A DNA stretch of 32,000 bases from Clostridia bacterium (GCA_017934955.1 JAGBIO010000006.1:67639-99638); one strand, 5' to 3'; counted from the first letter of the stretch, positions 7,192 to 30,915 are shown. Notes: generated by a model from the letters alone, not told the origin. A program made the numbers and translations.

Positions 7192-7345
7192 GTTACTAAT
7201 CAGACTTAAAATTATAAAAATGTTACGAACACTGTAGGGACAGCATTCATGCTGTCCACAGAAAAGGCAAAAAGCAGGACAGCATGAATGCTGTCCCTAC
7301 AATGGTTGTAGCCTCATTATAAAAAGCTATAGTCTGACCAGTAAC
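7192..7345. mobile_element. MITE-like element, copy 2 (154 bp, subfamily A) with perfect 8-bp TSD
   Basis: TIRs are GTTACTAATCAGACT (7192-7206) and AGTCTGACCAGTAAC (7331-7345). Hairpins lie at 7234-7257 and 7277-7300. A direct CGTTGGAA repeat flanks it at 7184-7191 and 7346-7353. Confidence 0.85.
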
Positions 7346-11581: not shown

Positions 11582-11706
11582 GTTACAAATTAGACTATAT
11601 CATTTTATAATAATTGCAGAATCATTGTAGGGACAGCATTCATGCTGTCCACAGAAGAAGCAGAAAATTTAATAAAACGATAAAAAGATATAGTCTGATC
11701 TGTAAC
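11582..11706. mobile_element. MITE-like element, copy 3 (125 bp, second hairpin deleted)
   Basis: TIRs are GTTACAAATTAGACT (11582-11596) and AGTCTGATCTGTAAC (11692-11706). There is a single hairpin at 11627-11650. No clear TSD; the flanks instead extend the inverted repeat (GATG/CATC). Confidence 0.7.
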
Positions 11707-11795: not shown

Positions 11796-13742
11796 ATGGG
11801 GAAGAGTTTATTTATTGCGGAAAAGCCGAGTGTGGCGAAGGAGTTTGCGAAGATTTTGAAAGTGAATGCGCCGACGCGGGATGGATATATTGAGAATGAT
11901 CAGTATGTGATTACTTGGTGTGTGGGGCATTTGGTGAATATGAGTTACCCGGAGAAGTATGATGAGAATTTGAGGCGATGGTCTATTTCGACATTGCCTT
12001 TTTTGCCGTTGGAGTATAAGTATGAGGTAATTTCTTCGGTGGAGAAGCAGTTTGAGATTGTGAAAGGACTTTTATGCCGTGAGGATGTGGAGAAGATTTA
12101 TGTTTGTACTGACTCGGGGCGTGAGGGGGAGTATATTTATCGTTTGGTGGATCAAATGGCGGAAGTGGGAGAGAAGGATAAGCGGCGTGTTTGGATTGAT
12201 TCGCAGACGGAGGAGGAAATTTTGCGTGGGATTCGTGAGGCGAAACCGCTTGAGGAGTATAATTCTTTGGCGGATTCGGCGTATCTTCGGGCGAAGGAGG
12301 ACTATTTGATTGGAATTAATTTTTCTCGTTTGTTGACTTTGCTTTATGGCAGAGCGGTTTCGATTGTGGGGAAAGAGGAAAAAGTGGTAATTGCGATTGG
12401 ACGTGTGATGACTTGTGTGCTTGGCATGGTTGTGGATCGAGAACGGGAAATCCGAAATTTTGTGAAGACGAATTTTTACAAGTTAAATAGTGAATTTAAT
12501 ATCGGAGAGGAAAATTGCGTCGGAGAATGGCGTGCGGCGGAAGGTACGGCATATTTTAATTCGCCGTTGTTATATAATGATACGGGTTTTAAAAAGAAGA
12601 AGGATGCGGAGAAGTTAGCGGAGGAGCTTCGAAAAAATACGGAAGGAGAGATTGTGGAGCTTAAGAAGAAGCAGCAGAAGGAAAATGCGCCGCTGTTGTT
12701 TAATTTGGCGGAGTTACAGAATGAGTGTTCGAAGCGTTTTAAGATTTCTCCGGATGAGACGTTATCGGTGGTGCAGACGCTTTATGAGAAAAAGTTGGTG
12801 ACATATCCGAGAACAGATGCGAGAGTTTTGTCGACGGCGATTGCGAAGGAGATTGCGAAGAATGTGAATGGTTTGGCAAATCGTTGTGCGGATGATGTTG
12901 TGAAAGTGGCTGCGGGGAATGTGATTGGCAGAAAGTATTCTTTGAATTTACTGAAGTCAAAATATGTGGATGATTCGAAGATTACGGATCACTATGCGAT
13001 TATTCCGACGGGACAGGGATTTGAGAATTATTCGGGTTTGAAGGAGTTGGAGAAAGCGATTTACCAAATGATTGGAATTCGTTTTTTGGCAGTTTTTTAT
13101 CCGCCGGCGGTGTTTAATCGTGTTTCTATGACGGTAAAAGTGGGGGAAGAGCTCTTTTTTGCGAATACGAAAACGTGCAAGGAAATCGGATATTTGGAGA
13201 TTATGAAAGCAAATAAGGAGAACGGTGAAGCGAAGGAGACTTTGGGAAACTTGAAAAAAGGTCAGCTTTTGAAGTTGGAGAAGATTGAGGTAAAAGAGGG
13301 AGAAACGACGCCTCCGAGTCGTTATACGACGGGTACGATGATTTTGGCGATGGAGAATGCGGGAAAGTTGATTGAAGATGAGGAGTTAAGAGCCCAGATT
13401 AAAGGTGCCGGAATCGGGACGAGTGCGACAAGAGCGGAGATTATTAAGAAGTTGCAGAAGAATGCGTATATTTTGTGCAATTCTAAGACGCAGGTGATTA
13501 CGCCGAGTGTAAAAGGCGAATTGATTTACGAGGTAGTGAAGGACAGTATGCCGGATATGCTGAATCCGGAATTGACGGCAAGTTGGGAAAAGGGCTTGAC
13601 GATGGTGGCGAATCAGGAAATCGGTGCGGAAGTTTTTATGGAGAAGTTGGAGAATTATATTAAGCGTAAAGTGCATAATGCGGTGGAGAGGAAACCGTAT
13701 ATTAATCCGCCGAGAATGTTTAAGGATGTGAAGGTGGAGTAG
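11796..13742 (+). CDS. topB: DNA topoisomerase III (type IA)
   Basis: Toprim N-terminus LFIAEKPSVAKEFAKIL, the catalytic-tyrosine block LVTYPRTDARVL, and a 648-aa length typical of Firmicute TopB. Confidence 0.9.
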   Translation: MGKSLFIAEKPSVAKEFAKILKVNAPTRDGYIENDQYVITWCVGHLVNMSYPEKYDENLRRWSISTLPFLPLEYKYEVISSVEKQFEIVKGLLCREDVEKIYVCTDSGREGEYIYRLVDQMAEVGEKDKRRVWIDSQTEEEILRGIREAKPLEEYNSLADSAYLRAKEDYLIGINFSRLLTLLYGRAVSIVGKEEKVVIAIGRVMTCVLGMVVDREREIRNFVKTNFYKLNSEFNIGEENCVGEWRAAEGTAYFNSPLLYNDTGFKKKKDAEKLAEELRKNTEGEIVELKKKQQKENAPLLFNLAELQNECSKRFKISPDETLSVVQTLYEKKLVTYPRTDARVLSTAIAKEIAKNVNGLANRCADDVVKVAAGNVIGRKYSLNLLKSKYVDDSKITDHYAIIPTGQGFENYSGLKELEKAIYQMIGIRFLAVFYPPAVFNRVSMTVKVGEELFFANTKTCKEIGYLEIMKANKENGEAKETLGNLKKGQLLKLEKIEVKEGETTPPSRYTTGTMILAMENAGKLIEDEELRAQIKGAGIGTSATRAEIIKKLQKNAYILCNSKTQVITPSVKGELIYEVVKDSMPDMLNPELTASWEKGLTMVANQEIGAEVFMEKLENYIKRKVHNAVERKPYINPPRMFKDVKVE

Positions 13743-13746
13743 CAAT

Positions 13747-13771
13747 GGGACAGCATGAATGCTGTCCGTAC
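13747..13771. repeat. Solo hairpin unit between topB and truB
   Basis: GGGACAGCATGAATGCTGTCCGTAC. It matches the hairpin-2 unit of the MITE but lacks arms and TIRs. Confidence 0.8.
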
Positions 13772-15050: not shown

Positions 15051-15290
15051 AGCAGGACAGCATTGCGGACGTAACACCGTGAGTGCAACGAACGGCTTGT
15101 ACGTCCTATACAAAGAAACTCCAAGAACGAAGTGATTGGAAAGTTTTGACTGTTAATGCTGTCCGTACAATGATATATTATAGGATAGAGTTAAAATTAT
15201 AAAAATGGTGCAAACATTGTAGGGACAGCATTTATGCTGTCCAAGGAAAATTCAGAGAAGCAGGACAGCATGAATGCTGTCCGTACGATA
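15051..15290. repeat. Hairpin-repeat cluster: one split hairpin unit plus a TIR-less MITE core
   Basis: AGCAGGACAGCAT (ending 15063) and AATGCTGTCCGTACAATG (from 15155) are separated by 92 nt. A MITE core follows, with arm TTAAAATTATAAAAATG and hairpins at 15219-15242 and 15263-15286. Confidence 0.75.
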
Positions 15291-15481: not shown

Positions 15482-17959
15482 TTGTTTGAGCAATTGAAGA
15501 AGAAATTTGACAATCCGGAGTTTTTGACGAAACTTTTTTATGGAATGACAATTGTTGTGATATTAAATCGATTAATTATGCTTTGCTTATTATTTGCGGG
15601 GAAAAATATGCTGATGACTTCAAACGAAATGTTTCGAGGTCTGTTTTGGCATTCGGAGGAATATGCGTTGGCATTTTTATTGCCGCTTGCAGGATTTGCG
15701 TATCTTTGTTCTTCGAAGTATGCGAGTAATACCGAAAATAAGATAAAAGGCTATTTTGTTACTTATCTGTTGCTTGCGACGATTACTTTTACGATGTTGG
15801 CACAGTGGGGGAATGAGTTTATTCTTTACGTGATTCGTTCGGTGGATAACGGAAATATTTTGCGATTGATTGCAAGCAGTGAGCAGGGAATGAAGATTTT
15901 CTTGGATGCTTTGCGGTACGGTACGTTATATCTTCCGATTTGTGTGGTTGCGATTACGCCTACGTCGATTGCATTGGTAATGGATAATGAACATCCGATC
16001 GGAAAGTTGAAGGCTTTATCTTTGCTTTCTTCGAAAACCAATCCGGATGCGGTTGGTGAGATGACTTGTGAGGTAAGACTTTGTGATGATCTTGATTCCG
16101 GTGCGCCGGTTATGGTTTCGGAGGCAAGAAGAATGGAGACCGTATTGGTACAGGGTGCTACTGGTACCGGTAAAACGTCTACGATGTTGTTGCCGATGTG
16201 TGCTTCGGATTTGAAGAAGAAGTATTTCTTCCGGGAAAAAGCGAAGGAGCTTGGTTTTAAGGCACTTAGCAGTGGTTGTGCGTATGTGAATGCGCCGTAT
16301 GATAATGAGACCTTAAATAATTGCTTTTCGCTTAACTTTTTACGTCCTATTTTTGGGCGTGAGAAGGAGTTTATGGAAATTTTGAAACCGATGATTAAGG
16401 GTGTTGATGAGGAGTCGAAGGAGATTATCTTTAAGGATCTTGGTATTACGGTTTTGGAGCCGGATGGAAATTTTATTGATGATTTTCGCTTGGTGGCGGA
16501 TAATTTGGGAATTATGGTGTATAAGATTGATCCGTTGGATCCAAATTCTTATGGAATCAATCCGTTTATTAATAAGAGTCCGGCGAAGGTGGCAAGTATT
16601 ATTTCGACGGTATTAAAGGGAATGTATGAGAGTGAAAATCCGGATTCGAGTAACGTTTTCTTTGGTCAGGTTACGCAACAGGCGTTGGAAAATTTGGCGA
16701 TTTTGTTAAAGGTAATGTATCCGAAACTGCATGATGGTGCGATGCCGACATTGGAGGATATGTTGGAGTGTTTATATAATTATGATGTTGTGGAAGATAT
16801 GTGTGAAGAATTAAAGCAAGATCCGGTTTTGAGTGTAAGATATGCGATTTTGATTAAATACTTTGAGAAGAATTTTTATAAGCCGCCGCTTGATATTAAC
16901 GGAAAACCGGTTTTGGGTACTGTGGGGAGTAACAGAAAAGAGACGGAATTGTTCTTATATGGTGCGACAACGCAGCTTGACAACTTGATGCGAAATAAGA
17001 AAGTTAGAAGAATTTTATGCAGTCGGGATAATAATATCGATTTGGATAAAGTGTTATCGCAGGGGTGCTGCGTTTCGGTTTGTACGCGGCGTGGAGAACT
17101 TGGTGCGTTATTGGCGAAGCCGTTTGGTATGTTCTATATTTTGACAATGCAGGATGCTGTTTTACGTCGTCCGGGAGATGAAAATACAAGAGTTCCGCAT
17201 TTTATGTATATCGATGAATTCCCGGATTTCGTGAATAAGGATACAGAGACATGCTTTACGTTATTCCGTAAGTATCGTTGCGGTATGACGATTGCGATTC
17301 AGAATTTGTCACAGTTGGAGAGAACAAAGTCAATGAAGTTTTATAAAGAGGTTATTACTTCGAACAGTAAGACGGTTGCGGTGTTTGGAGATACAAATAA
17401 GGAAGATAGTGAGTATTGGAGTAAGGCATTCGGTAAATATGAATATTGGGATATTTCCAGCTCGGCAAGTACAAAGCCGCTTAGTACGGTAACGAAGGAG
17501 GAGGCTTCTCCGGAGAAAATCGGTATGGGTGTTGACTTTACGGAAAATATTAAGCCGTATCAATTGAACGAGATGCCGTTTAGAACGTTATATTATAAAA
17601 CGCGTGATGCGGGCGGTAAACAGATATTCGGAAAGGGAACGACGGATTTCTTGGATAAGAAGTATTTGAAACAGTTTCCTACGAAGAAATATGATTTTGA
17701 GAGTTATGTGAATTATAATCCGGAGGATCCGGGTATGATTCATGAGGCTCCGGTGATTCGGAGCATTATTGATCAAGAAATTGAGTTAAATGATGCGATT
17801 GAGGGTAAGAACAGAGAGAGTATTGAGAAGGAGATGCTTTCTGAGAGAGAGTCTTTACAAAAAATGTTGAGCAGCAGTGAATTGCCGAAGAAGGAAAAGG
17901 CTTTTAAAGAGATTGAGTATATTGATGATATCGAAGTGGAGATTGATAAGAAAATATAG
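15482..17959 (+). CDS. Membrane-anchored P-loop ATPase, type IV coupling protein-like (TraG/TraD/VirD4 C-terminal-domain type), paralogue A
   Basis: About four N-terminal hydrophobic helices. Walker A GATGTGKTS (nt 16154-16180). IDPLDPNSYGINPF block. Walker B-like HFMYIDEFPDF (nt 17206-17229). The stretch FRKYRCGMTIAIQNLSQL...TVAVFGD fits the TraG-D_C pattern (DEF..R..g....QslsQL). TTG start. Confidence 0.8.
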   Translation: MFEQLKKKFDNPEFLTKLFYGMTIVVILNRLIMLCLLFAGKNMLMTSNEMFRGLFWHSEEYALAFLLPLAGFAYLCSSKYASNTENKIKGYFVTYLLLATITFTMLAQWGNEFILYVIRSVDNGNILRLIASSEQGMKIFLDALRYGTLYLPICVVAITPTSIALVMDNEHPIGKLKALSLLSSKTNPDAVGEMTCEVRLCDDLDSGAPVMVSEARRMETVLVQGATGTGKTSTMLLPMCASDLKKKYFFREKAKELGFKALSSGCAYVNAPYDNETLNNCFSLNFLRPIFGREKEFMEILKPMIKGVDEESKEIIFKDLGITVLEPDGNFIDDFRLVADNLGIMVYKIDPLDPNSYGINPFINKSPAKVASIISTVLKGMYESENPDSSNVFFGQVTQQALENLAILLKVMYPKLHDGAMPTLEDMLECLYNYDVVEDMCEELKQDPVLSVRYAILIKYFEKNFYKPPLDINGKPVLGTVGSNRKETELFLYGATTQLDNLMRNKKVRRILCSRDNNIDLDKVLSQGCCVSVCTRRGELGALLAKPFGMFYILTMQDAVLRRPGDENTRVPHFMYIDEFPDFVNKDTETCFTLFRKYRCGMTIAIQNLSQLERTKSMKFYKEVITSNSKTVAVFGDTNKEDSEYWSKAFGKYEYWDISSSASTKPLSTVTKEEASPEKIGMGVDFTENIKPYQLNEMPFRTLYYKTRDAGGKQIFGKGTTDFLDKKYLKQFPTKKYDFESYVNYNPEDPGMIHEAPVIRSIIDQEIELNDAIEGKNRESIEKEMLSERESLQKMLSSSELPKKEKAFKEIEYIDDIEVEIDKKI

Positions 17960-17979
17960 CGGATTGGTTTGGATAGGCG

Positions 17980-20298
17980 GTGAAGAGGTTGTTGATGTGG
18001 TTAAAGAAGAAACTGAAAGATAATGAGTTGATGTGTAAGGTTTTTTACGCTGCGACGGCGTTGGTGCTGATTAATCGGGTTTTTACTTTTATTGTGATGA
18101 TGCTGATTGGGAATGATGCCGGATTTTATCGGATTAGTATGTGGTCTTCCTATGAGTATACGTTGGCTTTTTTGTTGCCGCTTGCGGGATTTGCTCATTT
18201 TTGTTCTTCTTCTTATGCAAAGAATCGGTTTAAAAAGGTGAAGATGTTTAGTGCAACGACGATGATGATTGCGACGTTGGCTGCTTTTATGCTAGCGGAG
18301 TGGTCAAATCAATTGATTTGGTATTTCCTTTCTTTTTGGGGTTCGGATGTTGTGACGAGAGTTTTTTATGATGGTTACGGTATCGTGAGTTCGGCAGTAC
18401 GTTACGGGACGGTTTATTTTCCGCTATTGATGTTGTTTATTACTTCGGGCTATTTGTTTGATGCGATTTATTGGCCGGATTCAAAAGGGCAATTGTTGAA
18501 TTTAACTTTATTGGATAATGCACCGAATGCAATGCCGGTTGGAGAATATACTTGTGAAGTGGCTGTTTGTAAAGATGCCTTGACGGGAAAGCCGGTTGTT
18601 GTGCCGGAGAATCGCCGTATGGAGGCTACTTTGATTCAAGGTGCTACGGGTACCGGTAAAACGTCTACCTTGCTTTTACCGATGTGTGCGTCGGATATTG
18701 AAAAGAAATTTTTCTTCCGTGAACAAGCGAAGAAAGCAGCGATTGAGGCGTTGGATAAAGGATATGCGTATATTGAGGCTCCATTTGCGTTGGAGGAATT
18801 GAATGATAGATTTTCTCTTTCGTATATTAAACCGGCGTTAAACAAGGAAGAGGAGTTTAATGAGATTGTCTCGAAGTTTGTGAAATATGTGGATCCGATG
18901 ACGGGAGAGACGGTTTATAAGGATTTGGGTGTTACGGTTGTGGAGCCGGATGGAAAGTTTTGCAGTGATTTTAAGAAGGTTGCGGCAAATTTTGGAATAG
19001 AAGTGAAATCGATTGATCCGCAGGATCCGAATTCTTATGGTATGAATCCGTTTCAGATTGAGGATCCGGATGAGGTGGCAAGTATTATTGCGACGGTTTT
19101 ACAGGGAATGTATGAAAGCGAAAATCCGGGTGGAAACAATATTTTCTTTGGTCAGGTAACGCAGCAGGCTTTGGAGAATTTGGCGATTTTGCTTAAGGTG
19201 ATGTATCCGAGAATGCATGACGGACAGTTGCCGACGTTGGAAGATATGTTGAAGATGTTGTACGATTACAATATTGTAGAGTTGATGTGTGAAGAGTTGA
19301 AGAAGGATCCGGAACTTGCGGAGGAATATAAAATTTTGGTGAAGTACTTTGAGAAGAACTTTTATAATCCGCCGTGCGACTTAAACGGTCGTCCGATTCA
19401 GGGGACGGTCGGTAGTGGCAGAAAGGATACCGAGAAGTTTTTATATGGTGCTGCGACACAGTTGGATAACCTGATGAGACATGATATGGTGAAGCAAATT
19501 TTGTGTTCGAGAGATAAGAATTTGGACTTTGATGAAGTATTGAGAACGGGACAATGTGTGTCGGTTTGTACGAGACGAGGAGAGTTAGGTGCACTTTTGT
19601 CAAAGCCGTTTGGGATGTTCTTTATTCTTTCGTTACAAGCGGCGGTGCTTCGCCGTCCGGGTACCGAGAATACGAGAATTCCGCACTTTTTGTATATTGA
19701 TGAGTTCCCGGATTTCGTGAATAAGGAGACCGAGACATGCTTTACATTATTCCGTAAGTACAGATGTGCGATGATTGTGGCAATTCAGAATTTGTCACAG
19801 TTGGCACGGACTGAGTCAATGAAGTTTTATAAGCAGGTTGTTGTGTCAAATACAAAGACGCAGTTGGTATTCGGAGATACAAACGTGGAGGATAGTGATT
19901 ATTGGTCAGATGTTTATGGAAGAAGAGAAGTTCTTAAGGTGGGGAATTCTTTAGCGACGACTCCGATGGCGCAGGTGAAGGAAGGTTCTGCCGGTGTTTC
20001 GGGAGAAGATTACGGCGCAAGAGTTGCTATGACCGAGAAAATAAAGCCGCATGCGTTAAATCAGCTTCCGTTTAAGACGTTGTATTATGTTGTGAGAGAT
20101 GCGAAGGGAAATAAGCGTCAGGGTAAGGGTAAGACGGATTTCTTGAAGCAGAAGTATAAGGAGAAGCATGAACCGGAGAAATTTGATTTTACACGGTATA
20201 GAGCTTATTTTAGAACTTCGTTGAATGAGGGATATTGGAACGATAGTATTTCCGCACAGGAAGCGGCGGAAAATCGCTTCTTGGAAGGACAGTATTAG
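17980..20298 (+). CDS. Membrane-anchored P-loop ATPase, type IV coupling protein-like, paralogue B
   Basis: Same architecture and motifs as paralogue A: GATGTGKTS at nt 18640-18666, HFLYIDEFPDF at nt 19693-19716, and IVAIQNLSQL. It starts 21 nt after A ends. ATG 17995, with a GAAGAGG RBS, is an alternative start. Confidence 0.8.
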   Translation: MKRLLMWLKKKLKDNELMCKVFYAATALVLINRVFTFIVMMLIGNDAGFYRISMWSSYEYTLAFLLPLAGFAHFCSSSYAKNRFKKVKMFSATTMMIATLAAFMLAEWSNQLIWYFLSFWGSDVVTRVFYDGYGIVSSAVRYGTVYFPLLMLFITSGYLFDAIYWPDSKGQLLNLTLLDNAPNAMPVGEYTCEVAVCKDALTGKPVVVPENRRMEATLIQGATGTGKTSTLLLPMCASDIEKKFFFREQAKKAAIEALDKGYAYIEAPFALEELNDRFSLSYIKPALNKEEEFNEIVSKFVKYVDPMTGETVYKDLGVTVVEPDGKFCSDFKKVAANFGIEVKSIDPQDPNSYGMNPFQIEDPDEVASIIATVLQGMYESENPGGNNIFFGQVTQQALENLAILLKVMYPRMHDGQLPTLEDMLKMLYDYNIVELMCEELKKDPELAEEYKILVKYFEKNFYNPPCDLNGRPIQGTVGSGRKDTEKFLYGAATQLDNLMRHDMVKQILCSRDKNLDFDEVLRTGQCVSVCTRRGELGALLSKPFGMFFILSLQAAVLRRPGTENTRIPHFLYIDEFPDFVNKETETCFTLFRKYRCAMIVAIQNLSQLARTESMKFYKQVVVSNTKTQLVFGDTNVEDSDYWSDVYGRREVLKVGNSLATTPMAQVKEGSAGVSGEDYGARVAMTEKIKPHALNQLPFKTLYYVVRDAKGNKRQGKGKTDFLKQKYKEKHEPEKFDFTRYRAYFRTSLNEGYWNDSISAQEAAENRFLEGQY

Positions 20299-20307
20299 TA
20301 AAGAGAG

Positions 20308-20330
20308 GGCGAGCAGAAATGCTCGCCTTT
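20308..20330. terminator. Bidirectional terminator between the T4CP-like pair and yunB
   Basis: GGCGAGCA (20308-20315), loop GAAA, TGCTCGCC (20320-20327), then TTT. It sits between convergent genes, and the T-tract overlaps the yunB stop codon. Confidence 0.65.
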
Positions 20331-21200: not shown

Positions 21201-21277
21201 GGCCCGGTAGCTCAGTTGGTTAGAGCGCTAGCCTGTCACGCTAGAGGTCGAGGGTTCGAGCCCCTTCCGGGTCGCCA
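21201..21277 (+). tRNA. tRNA-Asp (anticodon GTC)
   Basis: Acceptor GGCCCGG/CCGGGTC, anticodon stem CTAGC/GCTAG, loop CTGTCAC, encoded CCA. Confidence 0.9.
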
Positions 21278-21285
21278 ATGAAATG

Positions 21286-21309
21286 GGCGGGTTTTAAGCC
21301 CGCTTTTTT
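21286..21309 (+). terminator. Short GC hairpin plus T6 between tRNA-Asp and tRNA-Phe
   Basis: GCGGG (21287-21291) pairs with CCCGC (21299-21303) and is followed by TTTTTT. Confidence 0.5.
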
Positions 21310-21346
21310 CAAAGTTAAATGCTCGATTGAGTAAATAACAGAATAT

Positions 21347-21422
21347 GCCTTGATAGCTCAGTCGGTAGAGCAGGGGACTGAAAATCCCCGTGTCGGTGGT
21401 TCGATTCCGCCTCAAGGCACCA
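21347..21422 (+). tRNA. tRNA-Phe (anticodon GAA)
   Basis: Acceptor GCCTTGA/TCAAGGC, anticodon stem GGGGA/TCCCC, loop CTGAAAA, encoded CCA. Confidence 0.9.
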
Positions 21423-21430
21423 TAAAATAC

Positions 21431-21505
21431 GCGGGAGTGGCTCAGTGGTAGAGCACTGCCTTGCCAAGGCAGCTGTCGCGGGTTCGAGTCCCGTCTTCCG
21501 CTCCA
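21431..21505 (+). tRNA. tRNA-Gly (anticodon GCC)
   Basis: Acceptor GCGGGAG/CTTCCGC, anticodon stem CTGCC/GGCAG, loop TTGCCAA, encoded CCA. Confidence 0.9.
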
Positions 21506-21513
21506 AAAAGATA

Positions 21514-21559
21514 AATCCGTACAACTCGCTTTTAAAGCAGATTGTACGGATTTTGTTTT
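21514..21559 (+). terminator. Stem-loop terminator after tRNA-Gly
   Basis: AATCCGTACAA (21514-21524) pairs with TTGTACGGATT (21542-21552) and is followed by TTGTTTT. Confidence 0.6.
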
Positions 21560-21614
21560 GCCTAAAGTATGCAACCAGTATGCTACGCCAAAAAAGTAGA
21601 GAGAAGTTGAAAAG

Positions 21615-21968: not shown

Positions 21969-22145
21969 TTAGAGAATTTCGAATTTGTCTACTTCAGGAA
22001 TTAAAGCAAGTGAACTGCCATTTTCCCATTTTACATGAATTTGTTTTGCATCATCGATAAATTCAACAGTCCCAGTTAATCCACTTAGCATTTGAGGTTC
22101 ATTATTCATATAAATGAGTTTTATTTTTGTATCTTTATCAATCAT
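21969..22145 (-). CDS. DUF4314 domain protein
   Basis: KIKLIYMNNEPQMLSGLTGTVEFIDDAKQIHVKWENGSSLALIPEVDKF matches the DUF4314 pattern common in Firmicute mobile elements. AAGGAG lies 8 nt upstream of ATG 22145. Confidence 0.75.
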   Translation of the reverse strand: MIDKDTKIKLIYMNNEPQMLSGLTGTVEFIDDAKQIHVKWENGSSLALIPEVDKFEIL

Positions 22146-22419
22146 ATGTATTTTCTCCTTTAGCAAATTTCATAATATTAAGTCCGTCTTTAACACCAAG
22201 CAAATAGGCTTTTTTAGTGAAAAAGGCATTTTCGGTAGAAAGTTTAAGAGAATATTTTTCAAAAGCATTCTCTAGAGTTTTGTTTCCTTCAAATAGTTCT
22301 TCTAAATTTGTATCTTCATACTATTCAGGATAAAGTTTTAATAATTCGGTTCTGTCTTGTTTGGTAATTTCGTGTAGTTCATCTTCTCTTGATTCGTAGA
22401 GCTTATTAATAATATCCAT
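22138..22419 (-). pseudogene. Small ORF (93 codons) interrupted by an in-frame TAG at codon 33
   Basis: ATG at 22419 follows GGAGATGATTAC. Translation: MDIINKLYESREDELHEITKQDRTELLKLYPE*YEDTNLEELFEG...KFAKGENTYD. The TAG is at 22323-22321. The 3' end overlaps the DUF4314 start by 8 nt. Confidence 0.45.
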
Positions 22420-22547
22420 GTAATCATCTCCTTTGTTGTGTTGTATGTTAGCTCTGAATGAAAAAAATAATCAAGTAGATATGTAGAAAAAAATATTTTT
22501 AAATGATAATATAAAAATAAGCTGAATAAGTGTGAGGAGGAATGAAA

Positions 22548-24191
22548 ATGAAGAAGTTTTTGATAGGAGCAATTACATTAGGAACATTGCTTTTAACTCC
22601 AGCTTTTGCAACGGAAGTGAAAGCTAATCTGCCTATATTTGATGTATCTTTTAATGGAATAGAGATTGAAAACCAAAATAGACAATATCCACTACTTGTT
22701 TATAAAGATATAACTTATGTACCAATGACATATTATGATTGTCGTTATCTTGGTTTAATATCTAATTGGGATAGTGAAACCAATACGCTGTCTATTCAAA
22801 AGGATAATATTACTTGTGCTTATCGTGATTATAACTGGAAGTTGGAGAATTCAAGTAAATATCAAGCAAGAGTTTGTGATTTTAATATAATAGTAAATGA
22901 TAAAGTGATTGATAACTCAAAAGAAGAATATCCATTACTTACTTTTAGAGATGTAACATACTTCCCCTTAACTTGGCGTTTTGCAGTAGATGAGTTTGGA
23001 TGGGAGTATAGTTTTGATAGAGAAAATGGTTTGATTATAAATTCTAATAATATCCATGCAAAAATAGTAGACCTACCATATTGTAGTGGTATGGTTGCCA
23101 CAGATGGAGTATATTATTATTACAATGGTAAATCTGGTGAAAAAAATGTAGTTTATAGAGCGTTGGTATCAGATACTTCTAATCCACAAATAATTCATGA
23201 AATCCCAAATTCAGATTTGAGTAAAACAGCAAGTTTACAAATGATTAATGGAGAAGTTTATATTAATTACTTATGTGGTTCTGGTCCAACGATGAGTACA
23301 GAATATTATTATAAAATAGAAGATGATGGAACTTTAACAAGACAGAATCCAAGTAATTATTCGGGTGGAAAGCATGGATATAGTGAAGTAACTAAAGAGG
23401 CTAATGGTATTTTTGTAAAGGGTACTAATTATTTTGATGGTGCAACTAAAATAACATATACGATGAATGGTGTTGAAATGGAAGTAGAAGCTATTTCTGG
23501 TACAGTACAAATTGGTAGAAAAAGAAATGGAAATAAAGATTATAGTTCTAATATAAAAGATGACTATATACAGATTTATAAAGGAAAAATATATTATACA
23601 GGAATAGATTTAAGTACAACCGAAGATAGTGCCTTATATTGTATTGATACTGCAACAGGTAAAACTGAAAAAATTATAGATAGTGTTTGGGGCTTCTATG
23701 TTTATAACGGATGGCTAAATGAAGAACAAGCTAATAGCACAATGATTATTTATGATTCTAATGGAAGTATAATGCGTTATGAAGAACTTACGGGTAATAC
23801 AAGAATGATAGAAGAATGTGATATTGAAGATGTTGTACTTGTAGGTGCAACAGGAGATAATTGTATTTACACTGTTCAAAAAACATTAAAAGGCGATAGA
23901 ACAATAGTGAAAGCTTTTGGAGACTATGCTAATGGTTATAGTAGTATAAATGGAGAAATAATAGGAGATACTCAAATAGGCACTTATGTAAGTTTAAGAG
24001 ATGATAAATTAATAATACAACTTAGTGGAGAACCACAAGAAGATACAAGACTTTTAATTATTGACGGAAATAATTATTTAGACAAACAATTCTGTTCAGC
24101 TGATGTAGCAAGTGGAGTATTTCTATACAATAATACACTTTTGTATATGATTGAGAATAATAAGATTGTAAGGGTTGATTTAGAATATTAA
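22548..24191 (+). CDS. Secreted protein: signal peptide, two stalk-like YPLL repeats, C-terminal beta-propeller-like region (DUF5050-like guess)
   Basis: Signal peptide MKKFLIGAITLGTLLLTPAFA. The repeats QYPLLVYKDITYVPMTYY and EYPLLTFRDVTYFPLTWRF resemble copper-amine-oxidase N-terminal/stalk modules. The remainder is Y/G/T-rich strand-like repeats. GAGGAGG lies 7 nt upstream of ATG 22548. Confidence 0.8.
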   Translation: MKKFLIGAITLGTLLLTPAFATEVKANLPIFDVSFNGIEIENQNRQYPLLVYKDITYVPMTYYDCRYLGLISNWDSETNTLSIQKDNITCAYRDYNWKLENSSKYQARVCDFNIIVNDKVIDNSKEEYPLLTFRDVTYFPLTWRFAVDEFGWEYSFDRENGLIINSNNIHAKIVDLPYCSGMVATDGVYYYYNGKSGEKNVVYRALVSDTSNPQIIHEIPNSDLSKTASLQMINGEVYINYLCGSGPTMSTEYYYKIEDDGTLTRQNPSNYSGGKHGYSEVTKEANGIFVKGTNYFDGATKITYTMNGVEMEVEAISGTVQIGRKRNGNKDYSSNIKDDYIQIYKGKIYYTGIDLSTTEDSALYCIDTATGKTEKIIDSVWGFYVYNGWLNEEQANSTMIIYDSNGSIMRYEELTGNTRMIEECDIEDVVLVGATGDNCIYTVQKTLKGDRTIVKAFGDYANGYSSINGEIIGDTQIGTYVSLRDDKLIIQLSGEPQEDTRLLIIDGNNYLDKQFCSADVASGVFLYNNTLLYMIENNKIVRVDLEY

Positions 24192-24199
24192 AAAATTAA

Positions 24200-24229
24200 G
24201 GGGATTGTTGAACACAATCTCTTTTTTTT
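24200..24229 (+). terminator. Rho-independent terminator
   Basis: GGGGATTGT, loop TGAAC, ACAATCTCT, followed by a T-run. Confidence 0.7.
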
Positions 24230-24586
24230 AATATTTGATAATAATTAAAATATCATTTTTTAGGGGATTTTTTCAAAGTAATGCAGTAAAGAATGCAACG
24301 GGAACGGATTTTTAAAGATGTTTAGTCAGACTTTGACAAAAATCATATTGCTAAAACTCGCATAAACAGGGCTAAAAGCTGACTAGTCGGTTCATAAGAG
24401 GAGCTAAATAGCGGTTCTAATTTAACACAAGGAACCAGCCCCGTTTGAATAAGTATGCAACAAGTATGCAGTACCAAAGATGTCAAGGAAACTTATTGAA
24501 AGCAGAGAAAAGTAGGTATTGCCAAATTATCGCACAAAATGGGCATAGCAAAGTGGAAAACAGTGGAGAAGGGGAGAGAAGTTGCC

Positions 24587-24599
24587 CTTCCGCTCCAAA
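24587..24599 (+). repeat. Direct repeat of the tRNA-Gly 3' end (att-like)
   Basis: CTTCCGCTCCAAA is identical to 21495-21507. As at the tRNA, a hairpin (24606-24650) follows, then TTGTTTTGGCAAAAGTATGCC; compare TTGTTTTGCCTAAAGTATGCA at 21553. Confidence 0.7.
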
Positions 24600-24779
24600 T
24601 GAATGAAATCGTGTGATTTGCTGAACAAGCGAGTTACACGATTTTTGTTTTGGCAAAAGTATGCCAAAAAGATGCTCGGTCGAACGAGTTGAGAGAAGCT
24701 GAAGCAGGTTTGAAAATTTTGATTATGTACGATTTAACTGTTGGAATTCTTTATATGGAATAGGAAAGCGTGGGAGTAA

Positions 24780-25301
24780 CAAATAGCACATGGATTTATT
24801 CCAGTAACTCAAGTACAGAAGAAGGCAAATGAGGATGAAATTCCGTTCTTTTGGTGGCAAGAGGAAGGTTGGCTTACAATGTGAAACGGAGATGTGGTTA
24901 ATCAACAAGATGTAGTAAAATGGTTTATTCAAATGCGAAGTATGGGATTTAGGATAAATAATGTGGCTTTCGATAAATACAAATCAAGAGAATTTGTGAA
25001 GTTTATGGAACAAGCGAAGTTTAAGGTGCAAAATTTAGACCAGCAATATTGGAAGAAGTCAGAGGCTTTTAGAGATATTGAAAGAAAGATAAAGGACAAG
25101 AAATTTTATTATTTGCATAATAAGGCTTTTGAATATTGCATAGGAAATGTAAAGGCGGTTGAGGATGCTGACGAGCGAGTAAGGTTCGAGAAGGTTGCAC
25201 CTAAAAAGAGGATGGATTTGTTTGATGCTACTGTTATTGCTTGCAAGCAATATATAAATGATAAGGATAAGAAGAATAGATTGTCAGGATGGTTTAATTA
25301 G
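24780..25301 (+). pseudogene. Phage terminase large subunit, C-terminal remnant with in-frame TGA
   Basis: The frame opens after TAA at 24777. Translation: HGFIPVTQVQKKANEDEIPFFWWQEEGWLTM*NGDVVNQQDVVKW...NKAFEYCIGNVKAVEDADERVRFEKVAPKKRMDLFDATVIA. This matches the terminase C-terminal nuclease region. The TGA is at 24882-24884. The N-terminal ATPase domain is absent. Confidence 0.7.
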
Positions 25302-25384
25302 GAATAGAAATTATAATATAGGTGACGTAATTGAATTGTTCTTATATAATAATTTTATAATTATAGCTTTTGAAAGGAGCCAGT

Positions 25385-25954
25385 ATGCTTGATTATAATA
25401 GATATAAGAAATGTAAGAATACTTATGATAATTATATTGTTATATTAGAGTATAAATCATATATACAACTTTTTGATGTTGATGCATATATTATAGCTAA
25501 AATTTTAGACGTAGTCGATAAAATAGAAATTCTTGATGAATGTCAAACTCTTGAATTTAGTGTAGACATGTTAAAAAATATAGAAGAAAAATTAAGAAAA
25601 GATGGAATTAATTATATTATAATGAGAATGGACAAAAATATTTTGACTAAAGTGAGGTTTAATGTTAAAAGTAAATATGAAGAACTATGTCAAGAGGCAA
25701 AAATTAATCAATATATAAATAGTAAAAGAAATGCAAATTATGAACAGAAAGAAATTAGTGAAAATATTCCAAATAAGTTTGATGATATATGTTTTACTTG
25801 CATGAAATATCGTGGAAATGAATGTTTTGGAGGTCAAGTGTGTGATTTATATAAGAAATCACCTGATGTCTCAAAAGAAGAAATAAAAAATTGGCCAGAG
25901 TATGGAAGTGCTACATTTTATAAGTTAAAAGGTTATCATAGAAATAGAAAATGA
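25385..25954 (+). CDS. Hypothetical protein, possible MutS-domain-I-like N-terminus plus Cys-rich C-terminus
   Basis: AAGGAG lies 5 nt upstream of ATG 25385, and the gene has its own terminator. [38 protein letters not shown] aligns without gaps by eye to the MutS block [38 protein letters not shown]. C-terminal cluster: [18 protein letters not shown]. Confidence 0.7.
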
Positions 25955-25980
25955 ACTACATTTGTAGTTCATTTTTGTTT
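25953..25980 (+). terminator. Rho-independent terminator
   Basis: GAACTAC (25953-25959) pairs with GTAGTTC (25964-25970) and is followed by ATTTTTGTTT. Confidence 0.6.
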
Positions 25981-25995
25981 AAAGGAGTTGATTCA

Positions 25996-27166
25996 ATGTG
26001 GTTTAGAAATAAAACAAGAGCAGATTCAGTAACAATATGGCTAAATGGTAGTGATGCAAGAGATATATTATGTCCAAGTGGTTATACTCCACTTTCAAAG
26101 AATGAAGAAATAAGGCGATGCACTCATAAAATTGCTGACTTAGTATCCAATATGACTATAATGTTAATGCAAAATAGTACAAATGGAGATGTAAGAATAA
26201 AGAACAATCTTTCAAAAAAAGATAGATATTTATCCCAATAACAATATAATTCGTAAGAACTTCATATATAAAATAGTTACAGATATGATATTAACAGGTA
26301 ATGTAATAGTTTTGCCAAAGATAAAGAATAACTTAATAGATGACTTACAAATTCTAAATATAGATAGAGTAAGTTTTGAGGATGATGGAGAAAGTTACAA
26401 GATAAGATATGGAAGTATGATATTTTATCCTGATGAGTTTCTTCATTTTATTTTAATTCCTGATGATGATTATCCTTACAAAGGACAGGGATATACACTC
26501 ACAATAAAAGAAACTGTTTTGAATTTGTTGCAAGCAAATGCAACTAAAACAGGTTTTTTGAAATCCAAGTGGAAACCATCAATGATAATGTCTATCAATG
26601 CAGATGTTGAAGAATTGCAAGATCCTGAAAAAAGAAATAAGATACTTGGAAGTTACACTAAAACAACAGAAGTTGGTGAGCCATGGATAATTCCAGCTGG
26701 AGAAATAGATATTAAAACCATTCAACCTTTAACATTATAAGACCTCGCCATACAAGATAGTATTACTTTAGATACAAAGAAAATAGCGAGTGCCTTTGGA
26801 ATACCAGCTTTTATGGTTGGAATAGGGGAGTTTAAGAAAGAAGAATATAATAATTATATTTCGACAGTAATAATGTCATTCGCTCAGCTTATTCAATAGG
26901 AATTAAGCAAAAAATTATTATATGACCCAACGATGTATTTTAAGTTTTCTCCACGAAGTTTAATGCGGTATGATTTAGGAGAAAAAACGACCTATGTAAA
27001 AGAAATGGTTTCAGGTGGAATGCTAAACCGAAATGAAGGCAAAAACGAATTTGATTATTCGCCAGTAGATAATGAGGGAATGAGTGAATATATAGTGCTT
27101 GAAAATTATATACCAGTGGCAAAGGTAGGAGAACAAGAAAAGTTGCAAAAAGGAAATGTAATGTGA
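25996..27166 (+). pseudogene. Phage portal protein (HK97-type) with one frameshift and two nonsense codons
   Basis: There is a frame change at the A7 run (26214-26220), an in-frame TAA at 26738-26740 and a TAG at 26897-26899. The concatenated translation reads through as one portal-like protein: ...PWIIPAGEIDIKTIQPLTL*DLAIQDSITLDTKKIASAFGIPAFMVG.... Confidence 0.75.
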
Positions 27167-27196
27167 TATATTTTATATAAATATTAATTTTTATAG

Positions 27197-27571
27197 GTGA
27201 TAAAATTGAAATTAAAAAATTTTTTAATCGTTGTTAATGATATTGAAGGAGCAGTAAGATTTTATGAAGATTTATTTGGATTAAAGCCAATAGTAGATAA
27301 CGATGGGAATATAATTATGACAGATGGGCTTGTTTTACAAGATAGAAAATATTGGAGTGAATTTATTAACAAAGATATAAAATTTGAAAACAATTCAGCT
27401 GAATTATATTTTGAAGAAGAAAATATAGAAGAATTTATTATAAAGTTAGAAGCTTTATATCCACAAGTAAAATATGTTAATCGATTAATGACACATTCAT
27501 GGGGACAGAAAGTAATTAGATTTTATGATTTGGATGGGAATCTTATTGAAGTTGGAACACCAGTGAAATAA
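27197..27571 (+). CDS. VOC (glyoxalase/bleomycin-resistance) family protein
   Basis: LKNFLIVVNDIEGAVRFYEDLFGLKP and IRFYDLDGNLIEV are typical VOC beta-alpha-beta modules. The start is either GTG 27197 or TTG 27206. Confidence 0.75.
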   Translation: MIKLKLKNFLIVVNDIEGAVRFYEDLFGLKPIVDNDGNIIMTDGLVLQDRKYWSEFINKDIKFENNSAELYFEEENIEEFIIKLEALYPQVKYVNRLMTHSWGQKVIRFYDLDGNLIEVGTPVK

Positions 27572-27591
27572 ATGAATTGGAGGATATAAGT

Positions 27592-28008
27592 ATGATTTCA
27601 ATAGAGTATAAAGACAAATTAACTGATGAGATTTATGAAATGCTCGATGAAGAATTTAATAAATATGCAAAGAAGAATTGTGTAGAATGTAACTATAAAG
27701 ATTTTAATTTTGTAGCTAAAGATGGAGAAAAAATAGTTGGATTAATAACATGGCATTCATATTATGATGAGATACACGTTGGTGACTTAATAATTCTTGA
27801 AGAGTACCGAAATCAACAAATAGGCAGTCACTTGATAAAGAGTGTTGAGGAATATTTTAAAGGTAAAGAATTCAAAAATATTAATCTTACAACATATGAA
27901 TTTCAAGCCCCTGAATTTTACGAAAAATGTGGGTATGAGCTTGAATTTGTAAGAGAAAATAAGGCTAATCCTAAATTAAATAAATACTTTTTCATAAAGC
28001 ACTTTTAA
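27592..28008 (+). CDS. GNAT family N-acetyltransferase
   Basis: Acetyl-CoA motif region LIILEEYRNQQIGSHLIKSVEEY, plus FYEKCGYE. GGAGG lies 6 nt upstream of ATG 27592. Confidence 0.8.
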   Translation: MISIEYKDKLTDEIYEMLDEEFNKYAKKNCVECNYKDFNFVAKDGEKIVGLITWHSYYDEIHVGDLIILEEYRNQQIGSHLIKSVEEYFKGKEFKNINLTTYEFQAPEFYEKCGYELEFVRENKANPKLNKYFFIKHF

Positions 28009-28075
28009 TTTGATCGAATTCGATCCAATTAAAGGTGCTATGTCAATAGTTGGGGTTCACTTCAAGATCCGAAAA

Positions 28076-28236
28076 GTTACAGGTCAGACTTAAATTTATA
28101 GGGAAGGCATAAACACTGTAGGGACAGCATTCATGCTATCCTGCTTTCCGCCTTTTCTGTGGACAGCATAAATGCTGTCCCTACAATGATTAAGAAACAT
28201 TTTAAGGTATATATAAGGTTCATTCAGAACTGTAAC
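28076..28236. mobile_element. MITE-like element, copy 4 (161 bp, subfamily A, central segment inverted)
   Basis: TIRs are GTTACAGGTCAGACT (28076-28090) and ATTCAGAACTGTAAC (28222-28236; 12/15 match to the consensus). Hairpins lie at 28118-28141 and 28161-28184. TCCGAAAA flanks it at 28068-28075 and 28237-28244. Confidence 0.8.
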
Positions 28237-28244
28237 TCCGAAAA

Positions 28245-28415
28245 GTTACAATTCAGACTCAAACTTATAGTGAAGCCAGAAATACTGTAGGGACACAATT
28301 TATTGTGTCCGAGAAATAAGCCGATATTTAGAATTAGGACACAATGAATTGTGTCCCTACAAAGGAATACAGAACATTTCGGCCATATAGAAAATTATTA
28401 AGTCTGATTAGTAAC
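28245..28415. mobile_element. MITE-like element, copy 5 (171 bp, subfamily B stems)
   Basis: TIRs are GTTACAATTCAGACT (28245-28259) and AGTCTGATTAGTAAC (28401-28415). Hairpins are GTAGGGACACAATTTATTGTGTCC and GGACACAATGAATTGTGTCCCTAC. TCCGAAAA flanks it at 28237-28244 and 28416-28423. Confidence 0.8.
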
Positions 28416-28659
28416 TCCGAAAAGTATTTTCTGCCCTTACTTTTTGCATAAAGATGCTTATTAGAGTGAGTTAGGAGAAGTAGGCTTGAAGAAAGAGTAA
28501 GAAATTTTATGAAAAATGAAATGTAGATTTTATGTGAATTTTAAGTTTTCGCGAATCCCATTTGGATGACGGGATCCGCTTTGATAAAACTAATGCTATG
28601 ATTTTCTTCTGCCGATATGTTCTATATAAAAAGAATATTTTGGGAGATGAGGAATTAGG

Positions 28660-30387: not shown

Positions 30388-30682
30388 TTATTCAATTGAT
30401 AAGGATGTATGTAGAGAAGTTTATATCATTTTGAATAAGTTGGATTTATATAATAGGCTTCCGGAAGAATTAAGAGCATATATAGAGAAAAATCAAAATA
30501 TGGAGTATAAATTTGATTTTAATGAGAAAGCACCTCTTTTTTATCAAATAAGTACCAATGAAACAAAATCTTTTTTGACGTATGTTTTTATAAAATATAT
30601 AAATACCAATAAGGCTGATATGGAATATTGCAAAAATGCAGTAATAGAAATAATGAAGAATGAAGTTTCTGAAAGTATATAA
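30374..30682 (+). CDS. Small hypothetical protein, apparently translationally coupled to the upstream gene
   Basis: ATG 30374 overlaps the upstream stop (30385-30387) by 14 nt, and GGAGGATGAGGG lies upstream. No recognised domain. The track start is GTG 30368. Confidence 0.6.
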   Translation: MNHDNYSIDKDVCREVYIILNKLDLYNRLPEELRAYIEKNQNMEYKFDFNEKAPLFYQISTNETKSFLTYVFIKYINTNKADMEYCKNAVIEIMKNEVSESI

Positions 30683-30915
30683 TGTTTTAATGAGCGGAGT
30701 AGTTTTCTGTATGTCAGGATAGTGATTATTCAGGAAAGCTACAAGCAATAAAATTTTTTGTACAAAGAATATATAGGATGATGTCTTGAAATTAGTGGAA
30801 TGTTTTTGGAATATTTTTTCAAAAAATTCAGCAAAATAAAATTTGAAATGTCGAGAACACCGTTCCCTATAATCGTTGCTTAATATATAAATTAAATAGG
30901 AAAGAGGAAGAGAAA

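Follow-up and report, generated by a model that had tools for sequence, protein, structure and literature searches.

How do two adjacent genes for membrane-anchored, coupling-protein-like ATPases come to lie among the housekeeping genes of a gut bacterium, and what might their products do there? The question is raised by a 32,000-nucleotide (nt) stretch of DNA from a Clostridia bacterium (GCA_017934955.1 JAGBIO010000006.1:67639-99638), here called the window, in which two tandem genes, A and B, encode proteins resembling type IV coupling proteins (T4CPs). Genes for such proteins, like those for relaxases, are generally viewed as hallmarks of mobile elements. A first description of the locus (the sequence-only reading) took the pair to be an orphan, duplicated and possibly domesticated translocase. 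The answer favoured here, with a confidence that stays a little short of even, is that A and B are the two membrane-anchored, predicted ring-forming subunits of a host-fixed, conjugation-derived DNA translocation motor. The two genes and their main parts are as follows.

15482..17959, + strand: T4CP-like ATPase A, an open reading frame (ORF) of 825 amino acids (aa) with a TTG start and the Shine-Dalgarno sequence AAGGGGTGG; aa 1-170, membrane domain; aa 190-660, TrwB/VirD4-fold nucleoside triphosphatase (NTPase) carrying an all-alpha insertion; aa 680-720, small beta domain; aa 745-825, disordered acidic C-terminal tail with DDIEVEIDKKI at its end

16154..16177, + strand: Walker A (P-loop) of A, GATGTGKT, aa 225-232

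17207..17224, + strand: Walker B of A, YIDEFP, aa 576-581, with FRKYR and IQNLSQL after it

17714..17956, + strand: acidic C-terminal tail of A, placed by charge count and a predicted local distance difference test score (pLDDT) below 50

17980..20298, + strand: T4CP-like ATPase B, of A-like architecture without the C-terminal tail

18640-18663, + strand: Walker A of B

Family and fold of A and B

Both proteins score above the Pfam thresholds for TraG-D_C (PF12696; A 43.9 bits, B 33.2 bits, cutoff 22) and T4SS-DNA_transf (PF02534; A 39.2 bits, B 27.1 bits, cutoff 20.1), with B in addition matching TrwB_AAD_bind (34.1 bits, cutoff 20.5). An AlphaFold2 model of A (pLDDT 75) has a RecA-type domain that carries an all-alpha insertion, together with a small beta domain and a tail without order, and the top 39 PDB matches of this model in Foldseek were Cag-beta, TrwB and DotL with E values of 2.5e-11 to 5e-7 (Cag-beta 2.5e-11, TrwB about 1e-10) and target TM-scores of 0.46-0.70. 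Because the Pfam thresholds are passed and the best Foldseek matches are coupling proteins, A and B are genuine yet very divergent members of the T4CP superfamily, in keeping with the first description of them as coupling-protein-type ATPases. Searching PDB sequences gave no match with either a single protein or a family profile. The possibility that the pair belongs to an already characterised family was also followed up, and no curated NCBIfam model accepts A or B, the best being conju_CD1115, a model for VirD4-like conjugal transfer proteins (A 39.4 bits, B 33.3 bits, cutoff 250), whose cutoff is missed by more distant relatives too.

A membrane-anchored ring ATPase amid core genes could also be a chromosome-handling translocase of the SpoIIIE/FtsK/SftA kind acting in division or sporulation, and sporulation genes do occur at several loci, the window having yunB and relatives having bofA and spoVT. 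This is distinctly improbable given that Pfam FtsK_SpoIIIE (PF01580) scores only 14.8 and 13.9 bits, far under its cutoff of 24 and over the P-loop region alone, that the fold is nearest to T4CPs and not to FtsK, and that the partner genes found in relatives are relaxase-like rather than division genes (see below). The link to sporulation through yunB that had been suggested from the window fares no better, as the sole other member of the window's yunB cluster (locus L084) lies five ORFs downstream of its T4CP gene and the other pair-bearing species have different neighbours.

A part in anti-phage or DNA-modification defence, for instance as a MADS mad8-like or DndH-like ATPase, is raised by the PADLOC defence models, which gave just weak mad8 matches (B 33.1 bits, A 23.4 bits), and by the DndH C-terminal domain (E = 6e-7), which with VirB4 and HerA makes up the next Foldseek matches after Cag-beta, TrwB and DotL. 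The T4CP matches are four orders of magnitude better, the surroundings are housekeeping genes and not defence islands, and neither methylase, nuclease nor other system genes are conserved nearby. With mad8 matches that were weak only, a defence system was dropped as a candidate and is considered very improbable.

A and B are paralogues, with 55% identity across 768 aa (BLASTP, E = 0), as had been proposed for these two adjacent same-strand genes. Identity is 37% in the membrane region, 66.8% in the ATPase domain (aa 191-660), where two-thirds had been estimated by eye, and 47% in the C-terminal part. The description of long runs as nearly identical at the DNA level was overstated, nucleotide identity in the ATPase domain being 69% with a best 90-nt window of 90% and a longest exact run of 23 nt. 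The motifs first picked out by eye (EY.LAFLLPLAGFA..CSS.YA, GATGTGKTS, YIDEFPDFVNK.TETCFTLFRKYRC and IQNLSQL) were all found and are invariant or nearly so among 28 aligned family members. This alignment, in which identity is 41-72%, holds about 130 invariant columns, including Walker A, Walker B, FRKYR and IQNLSQL. In the numbering of A every Walker A column is invariant save T229 (at least 90%), as are Y576-P581, F595-R599 and I606-L612, within which S610 is only nearly invariant. The Walker motifs, on whose conservation among orthologues the first description had staked its view, are therefore kept in all 28 sequences down to 41% identity. The count of about four N-terminal helices was a reasonable one, as the AlphaFold2 model of A has four long helices in residues 12-168, with Kyte-Doolittle hydropathy marking two strongly hydrophobic segments per protein (A 21-39 and 149-167; B 25-43 and 145-163).

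Distribution and inheritance of the family

Relatives number several hundred in a search of 5.8 billion proteins; they are 760-920 aa long and come nearly all from metagenome-assembled genomes (MAGs) of Clostridia. When 1.84 billion cluster representatives were searched exhaustively, 150 matched at E <1e-30 and 2270 at E <1e-3. Judged by these similarities the family is a small, distinct group inside the T4CP world. At least 550 species-representative genomes, all of uncultured gut Clostridia, encode a relative, and across these species the ORFs are intact at 770-920 aa.

Gene context was sampled at 89 loci from 89 genomes, in which ORFs were called and clustered. The usual state is a single copy, the tandem pair being confined to one sub-lineage (five of the 89 loci, plus L110 and L111), and a metagenome scan revealed no further pair-bearing locus. 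The flanks are made up of recurring housekeeping genes in two arrangements, one with pth, rplU, rpmA and obg upstream and the other with a HU gene and a murJ/spoVB-like gene upstream. The T4CP co-diverges with these neighbours, with Spearman coefficients for pairwise identity of 0.81 with pth, 0.78 with L21 and 0.77 with L27, and it is as well conserved as pth (mean identity 54% vs 49%). When every protein of two related plasmids was used in BLAST searches, no type IV secretion system (T4SS) gene was found within 10 kb of the T4CP gene in any of the 89 loci, and only three plasmid proteins were matched there, namely the T4CP itself, a protein of about 313 aa and an S1-domain protein. No integrase was present among the window ORFs and none was recurrent in the 89 loci. 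In phages, tblastn gave one marginal match with 16% coverage and a scan of IMG/VR gave none, and on these two results a phage or viral origin was dropped.

The recurrent housekeeping flanks, the co-divergence, the T4SS-free loci and the lack of viral relatives together mean that the T4CP gene behaves as a vertically inherited core gene, unlike a mobile element, and it is proposed to have been under strong purifying selection since its fixation. In keeping with this, the pair's local orphan standing in housekeeping DNA, first described from the window, was confirmed. Whether the pair might be the remnant edge left by an integrative and conjugative element (ICE) or conjugative plasmid had also been asked, and the 10 kb around the T4CP, free of T4SS genes in all loci, together with the co-divergence with neighbours argue against this. 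Likewise the absence of an integrase and the coefficients of 0.77-0.81 with housekeeping neighbours are not those of an ICE or of an integrative and mobilizable element (IME). The neighbourhood comparison across Clostridia called for by the sequence-only reading gave a mixed answer, in that T4SS genes are absent within 10 kb at all 89 loci, whereas the gene is usually single copy and is not tied to yunB.

Plasmid relatives and partner genes

Neighbour-joining resolves the chromosomal family as monophyletic, with a clade of Clostridium plasmid T4CPs as its sister group. The best annotated homologues are encoded by megaplasmids of C. botulinum and C. beijerinckii, with 30-35% identity over 75-80% of the protein, and those plasmids also encode VirB4 (DUF87), a VirB11-like ATPase of the type II secretion system (T2SS)/T4SS family, a cell-wall hydrolase and a C39 peptidase. 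In 34 of the 89 loci the T4CP gene has the same convergent downstream neighbours, namely the highly conserved protein, about 313 aa long, and after it one with two S1 domains. This order of S1 and MOBC-like genes is common to the chromosomal relatives and the Clostridium plasmids, and homologues of the 313-aa protein occur on just 11 plasmids, nine of which also belong to the plasmids that carry the ten best T4CP matches. Since the sister plasmid clade carries VirB4 and the same MOBC-like and S1 neighbours, the family is best read, from these relationships, as descended from the module that serves DNA processing and coupling in a clostridial conjugative plasmid, and such an origin would favour DNA over protein as the substrate.

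Many database members of the 313-aa protein have precomputed matches to Replic_Relax (PF13814) and bear the name 'replication-relaxation family protein'. The model of the protein combines a winged helix-turn-helix (wHTH) domain with a restriction-endonuclease-like alpha/beta fold, and a PDB search with the partner-protein profile gave no match. PF13814 is the family of MOBC relaxases, PD-(D/E)XK enzymes such as TraX of pAD1 (PMC5357655, PMC3424549, PMC12857230), and MOBC relaxases are paired with VirD4-type coupling proteins in streptococcal IMEs (PMC5357655, PMC12857230). The unrecognised MOBC-like partner class in these loci is new. The 313-aa partner (for example L005, 13630-14574, - strand) is more conserved than the T4CP itself, with mean identities of 62% vs 49% over the same genome pairs in the 34 loci, and it carries an invariant PQL....ED..H motif; conservation of this order is unusual for a relaxase-type gene.

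The plasmids are of interest in their own right. Four of them, L089, L115 and L116 (C. botulinum pFWSKR40E1) and L090 (C. beijerinckii p1), are 134-169 kb in size and are typed as 'non-mobilizable' by MOB-suite, and nonetheless have genes for a T4CP, VirB4 and a T2SS/T4SS-family ATPase as well as for hydrolases and the MOBC-like and S1 proteins. They are probably an unrecognised conjugative plasmid family whose relaxase is missed by typing tools. With the plasmid VirB4 as query for a cognate in the carrier genomes, the matches listed were all at least 44% identical, of element type and not assignable to the carrier MAGs.

A protein substrate has also been considered, with the motor acting as an ATPase for the export of effectors or surface proteins or as a partner of a Tad/Flp-type pilus. 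T4CPs of the DotL and Cag-beta type do deliver proteins, and at L003 and L004 the single-copy gene stands directly after a complete Tad/Flp operon on the same strand. This operon (L003, 1-12637, and L004) encodes a CpaE-like protein, a T2SSE ATPase, two T2SSF proteins, a Flp pilin, a DUF5702 protein and a prepilin peptidase, and a conserved Tad-like pilus cluster is described from the uncultured gut order TANB77 (PMC11680825). The adjacency is limited to one lineage, for which reason the link to the Tad pilus was dropped; the recurrent partners, a nuclease-like wHTH protein and an S1/OB-fold protein, point to nucleic acid, and no candidate effectors or chaperones are conserved nearby, leaving a protein motor improbable.

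The duplication and the acidic tail

The A and B clades are sisters in the neighbour-joining tree, with internal topologies that are congruent over six species and with similar rates (identities of 59-72% among A proteins and 59-67% among B proteins). A and B stay adjacent though the surroundings differ in each pair-bearing species. The pair stems from a single old duplication with both copies retained in every descendant. Both proteins have kept all catalytic motifs, and they differ in the C-terminal tail. The last 85 aa of A contain 22 D+E against 12 K+R, the AlphaFold2 pLDDT of the tail is below 50, and A orthologues conserve the terminal motif ..DDIEVEIDK.., which none of the B orthologues has. 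The tail of A is, as F TraD would suggest by analogy, a putative docking site for substrate or relaxosome. One old duplication with both copies kept suggests subfunctionalisation, which would most simply take the form of a mixed A/B ring.

These data also bear on whether the pair is an inert relic of an old integrated plasmid or ICE with no present function, as might be argued from the plasmid sister group, from the loss of partner genes from the neighbourhood in several lineages and from a degraded prophage about 2 kb from the pair in the window. Such a relic is strongly disfavoured by the intact ORFs in so many species, by invariant catalytic motifs and conservation at the level of pth, and by the retention of both duplicates with congruent trees.

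A proposed DNA translocation motor

The favoured reading, a host-fixed motor of conjugative descent that moves DNA, begins with the coupling protein gene of a clostridial conjugative plasmid, which would have become fixed in the chromosome of uncultured gut Clostridia and then passed on by vertical descent. DNA would be cut or nicked by a partner, in most relatives the adjacent MOBC-type wHTH and PD-(D/E)XK nuclease, helped there by the two-S1-domain protein as a single-strand binder. The nucleoprotein would then dock on the T4CP ring via the acidic C-terminal tail, and the ring would pump the DNA strand to or through the membrane. Exit could be via a channel encoded elsewhere, belonging to an unlinked T4SS or a co-resident element, or could take place without a dedicated channel in the manner of Streptomyces TraB or Thermus TdtA. 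In the window lineage one duplication gave A, which keeps the putative docking tail, and B, which has lost it, both with catalytic motifs, and the likeliest arrangement is a mixed A/B ring with division of labour; topoisomerase III (topB) might aid strand passage. The family, fold and motif conservation, the distribution and vertical inheritance, the plasmid sister group, the partners of relatives and the single duplication are shown by the data, whereas DNA as the substrate, the direction of its transport, the formation of a hetero-oligomer and the role of the tail are inferred. The earlier term, a chromosomally domesticated translocase for DNA or protein, is a fair reading, with the substrate now narrowed in favour of DNA. 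Ordinary plasmid transfer is probably not the role of the pair.

In a bolder and doubtful version of this proposal, the clade would have domesticated the conjugative half (T4CP, MOBC-type nuclease and S1/OB-fold protein) as a core, channel-free system for DNA export or donation, akin in its logic to Thermus transjugation or Streptomyces TraB, with the window lineage using an obligate A/B hetero-hexamer that bears the tail on one subunit type.

The main competing explanation, which is unlikely, is that these are ordinary coupling proteins serving standard conjugation with the rest of the conjugation set (VirB4, VirB6-like protein, hydrolase and relaxase) encoded elsewhere in the genome. The T4CP fold and Pfam family would be expected of such proteins, the sister group is found on VirB4-carrying plasmids, and a relaxase-like gene adjoins the T4CP gene in many relatives. 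Conjugation genes are usually clustered and horizontally mobile, whereas here T4SS genes are absent from the vicinity throughout the 89 genomes, the gene co-diverges with ribosomal and pth neighbours at a housekeeping-slow rate and no integrase is nearby.

Besides this explanation, several points weigh against a DNA motor of conjugative descent. The carriers are uncultured MAGs throughout, and function is predicted from sequence and models. T4CPs are capable of delivering proteins too, DotL and Cag-beta being examples. The 313-aa partner scores 25.3, 24.7, 22.5 and 19.2 bits against Replic_Relax (PF13814), for which the cutoff is 25.3, and its model gave weak structural matches to FokI, AF2093 and a PadR-type wHTH at E of about 5e-4, that to FokI having a low TM-score. 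In none of the pair-bearing species does a relaxase-like or S1 gene occur within 10 kb of the pair, and the window itself has neither. No element resembling an origin of transfer (oriT) was found at the pair, where palindromes upstream of A (15223, 15263) were examined as a candidate oriT and rejected as copies of a dispersed repeat that is not specific to the pair, and in four relatives the DNA upstream of the S1 gene, examined for oriT-like repeats, yielded only AT-rich repeats at chance level.

Organisation of the window

Genes in the window run in the order SNF2 helicase, dacA, yebC, U32 peptidase, HD protein, topB, truB, dgkA and A-B, followed by the convergent yunB, tRNA genes for Val-Asp-Phe-Gly and an AT-rich island. 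Two further features complete the description.

11796..13742, + strand: topB, DNA topoisomerase III (NCBIfam TIGR01056, 518 bits, cutoff 515.75)

20305..20330, both strands: GC-rich hairpin between the stop of B and the convergent stop of yunB, from a terminator scan and sequence reading

The neighbours first named for the pair, truB, dgkA, yunB and a tRNA operon, were recovered with topB in addition. Base composition is also as first described, with a GC content of 0.38-0.43 across the pair and core genes vs 0.27-0.34 in the island at 22-31 kb. Likewise the 32 kb contain neither a relaxase gene nor genes for VirB4, VirB6 or a pilin, and the view that no oriT-like context accompanies the pair stood, the palindromes upstream of A being a dispersed repeat. 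The statement that the pair has no secretion channel is established for its neighbourhood only and not for the whole genome.

B may start at GTG 17980, giving 772 aa, or at ATG 17995, giving 767 aa. The ATG is more probably the start, being preceded by a Shine-Dalgarno sequence, GAAGAGG, better than that at the GTG, and the 767-aa product is identical to a database protein (P0031) that gene callers give in further assemblies of this organism. The gap of 20 nt first given between A and B is correct for the GTG start and becomes 35 nt with ATG 17995. The hairpin downstream of B is likely a bidirectional terminator ending the A-B operon. Among the three closest species topB is directly downstream of the pair in L010 and L110 and two genes upstream of it in the window, a weak hint at a loose functional link.

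The AT-rich island (22000-31000) contains short ORFs whose only matches are to pieces of a terminase nuclease domain and of a portal protein, indicating a degraded prophage, along with glyoxalase and GNAT genes and two large ORFs (22542-24191 and 28660-30387) without a family match. The pair was considered as an edge of this island or prophage remnant and the idea was rejected, as yunB and four tRNA genes lie between them and the island is absent in other pair-bearing species.

A perfect palindrome, GGACAGCAT-NN-ATGCTGTCC, occurs in 11 intergenic copies in the window vs 0 expected by chance, at 620-639, 659-678, 863-882, 7238-7257, 7277-7296, 11631-11650, 13748-13767, 15223-15242, 15263-15282, 28122-28141 and 28161-28180. 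Copies are often paired 39-40 bp apart, and among the fetched loci they are confined to contigs of the same species (L112-L114). The palindrome could be an element like the repetitive extragenic palindromes (REP) or the operator of a global regulator. GC skew over 1-32000 is uniformly positive, mostly +0.3 to +0.5, with nearly all genes on the + strand, an unusually strong asymmetry. An ORF of 502 aa between dacA and yebC (5647-7155, + strand) is without a Pfam or NCBIfam match. Two mechanically called ORFs on the - strand, one of 136 aa antisense within B (19193-19603) and one of 112 aa overlapping the tRNA genes (21236-21574), are almost certainly spurious.

Comparison with known systems

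In common with TrwB of R388, VirD4, Cag-beta and DotL, the family has an N-terminal anchor, a RecA-like NTPase into which an all-alpha domain is inserted, both Walker motifs (A and B) and the TraG-D_C module. It differs from them in a larger membrane domain of about four helices instead of two and in some 90 extra residues after the P-loop, while A and B are further set apart by being chromosomal, vertically inherited, tandem and without an adjacent T4SS, and by the lack of a PDB sequence match. The canonical arrangement of a T4CP, with a relaxase and a T4SS mating channel on one element, is not seen at the pair, either in the 32 kb window or in the 89 loci.

The T4CPs of the Clostridium and Thermoanaerobacterium plasmids (pFWSKR40E1 family, p1) are the closest relatives with an annotated context and form the sister clade. 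They share with the chromosomal relatives the S1 and Replic_Relax-like gene pair, and differ in their length of 920-1000 aa and in having VirB4 and a T2SS/T4SS-family ATPase beside them, along with hydrolases and recombinases. The plasmids are themselves uncharacterised and of the MOB-suite type 'non-mobilizable'.

The chromosomal module resembles the class 8 modules of streptococcal IMEs, in which a VirD4-family coupling protein and a Replic_Relax/MOBC relaxase occur without T4SS genes and depend on a channel encoded elsewhere (PMC5357655). IMEs have an integrase and attachment sites and are patchily distributed, whereas the module of this family is without an integrase, is flanked by essential genes and diverges in step with them. 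The window lineage is also without an adjacent MOBC-like gene, unlike IME class 8. TcpA/FtsK-like proteins, as of pCW3, Tn916 and ICEBs1, are likewise membrane-anchored DNA-translocase couplers in Gram-positive conjugation; A and B are unlike TcpA in that FtsK_SpoIIIE is under its cutoff and the fold is nearer to TrwB. Couplers of the TcpA type pair with MOBT or tyrosine-recombinase-like relaxases and not with MOBC (PMC5357655).

For export without a T4SS there are two functional precedents, both of them on mobile elements, the FtsK-like TraB and the HerA-like TdtA, and the likeness of the VirD4-like A and B to these is functional and hypothetical only. Streptomyces TraB is a single membrane-associated hexameric ATPase that exports DNA without a T4SS. 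In Thermus thermophilus the hexameric ATPase TdtA acts with nuclease partners in the T4SS-free donation of DNA termed 'transjugation' (PMC5365140).

In the literature surveyed on orphan and domesticated couplers, the coverage of which is incomplete, no vertically inherited core-genome T4CP and no tandem T4CP paralogues are described. To our knowledge there is also no described hetero-oligomeric T4CP ring made of tailed and tail-less subunits. The kind of protein is already known; what is new is the fixed, orphan and duplicated genomic status.

Significance

For the annotation of genomes, a tool that takes T4CPs and relaxases as a sign of mobility would class these loci wrongly. That VirB4-carrying Clostridium plasmids are typed as 'non-mobilizable' suggests a class of MOBC-like relaxases that has gone unrecognised, and with a tailed A beside a tail-less B nature provides a case in which hetero-oligomeric T4CP rings could be tested. 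For the bacteria themselves, the core-gene behaviour of the family would mean that a conjugative DNA motor is owned by the host, with possible uses in chromosomal gene exchange, DNA release or another envelope-crossing task in abundant uncultured gut bacteria.

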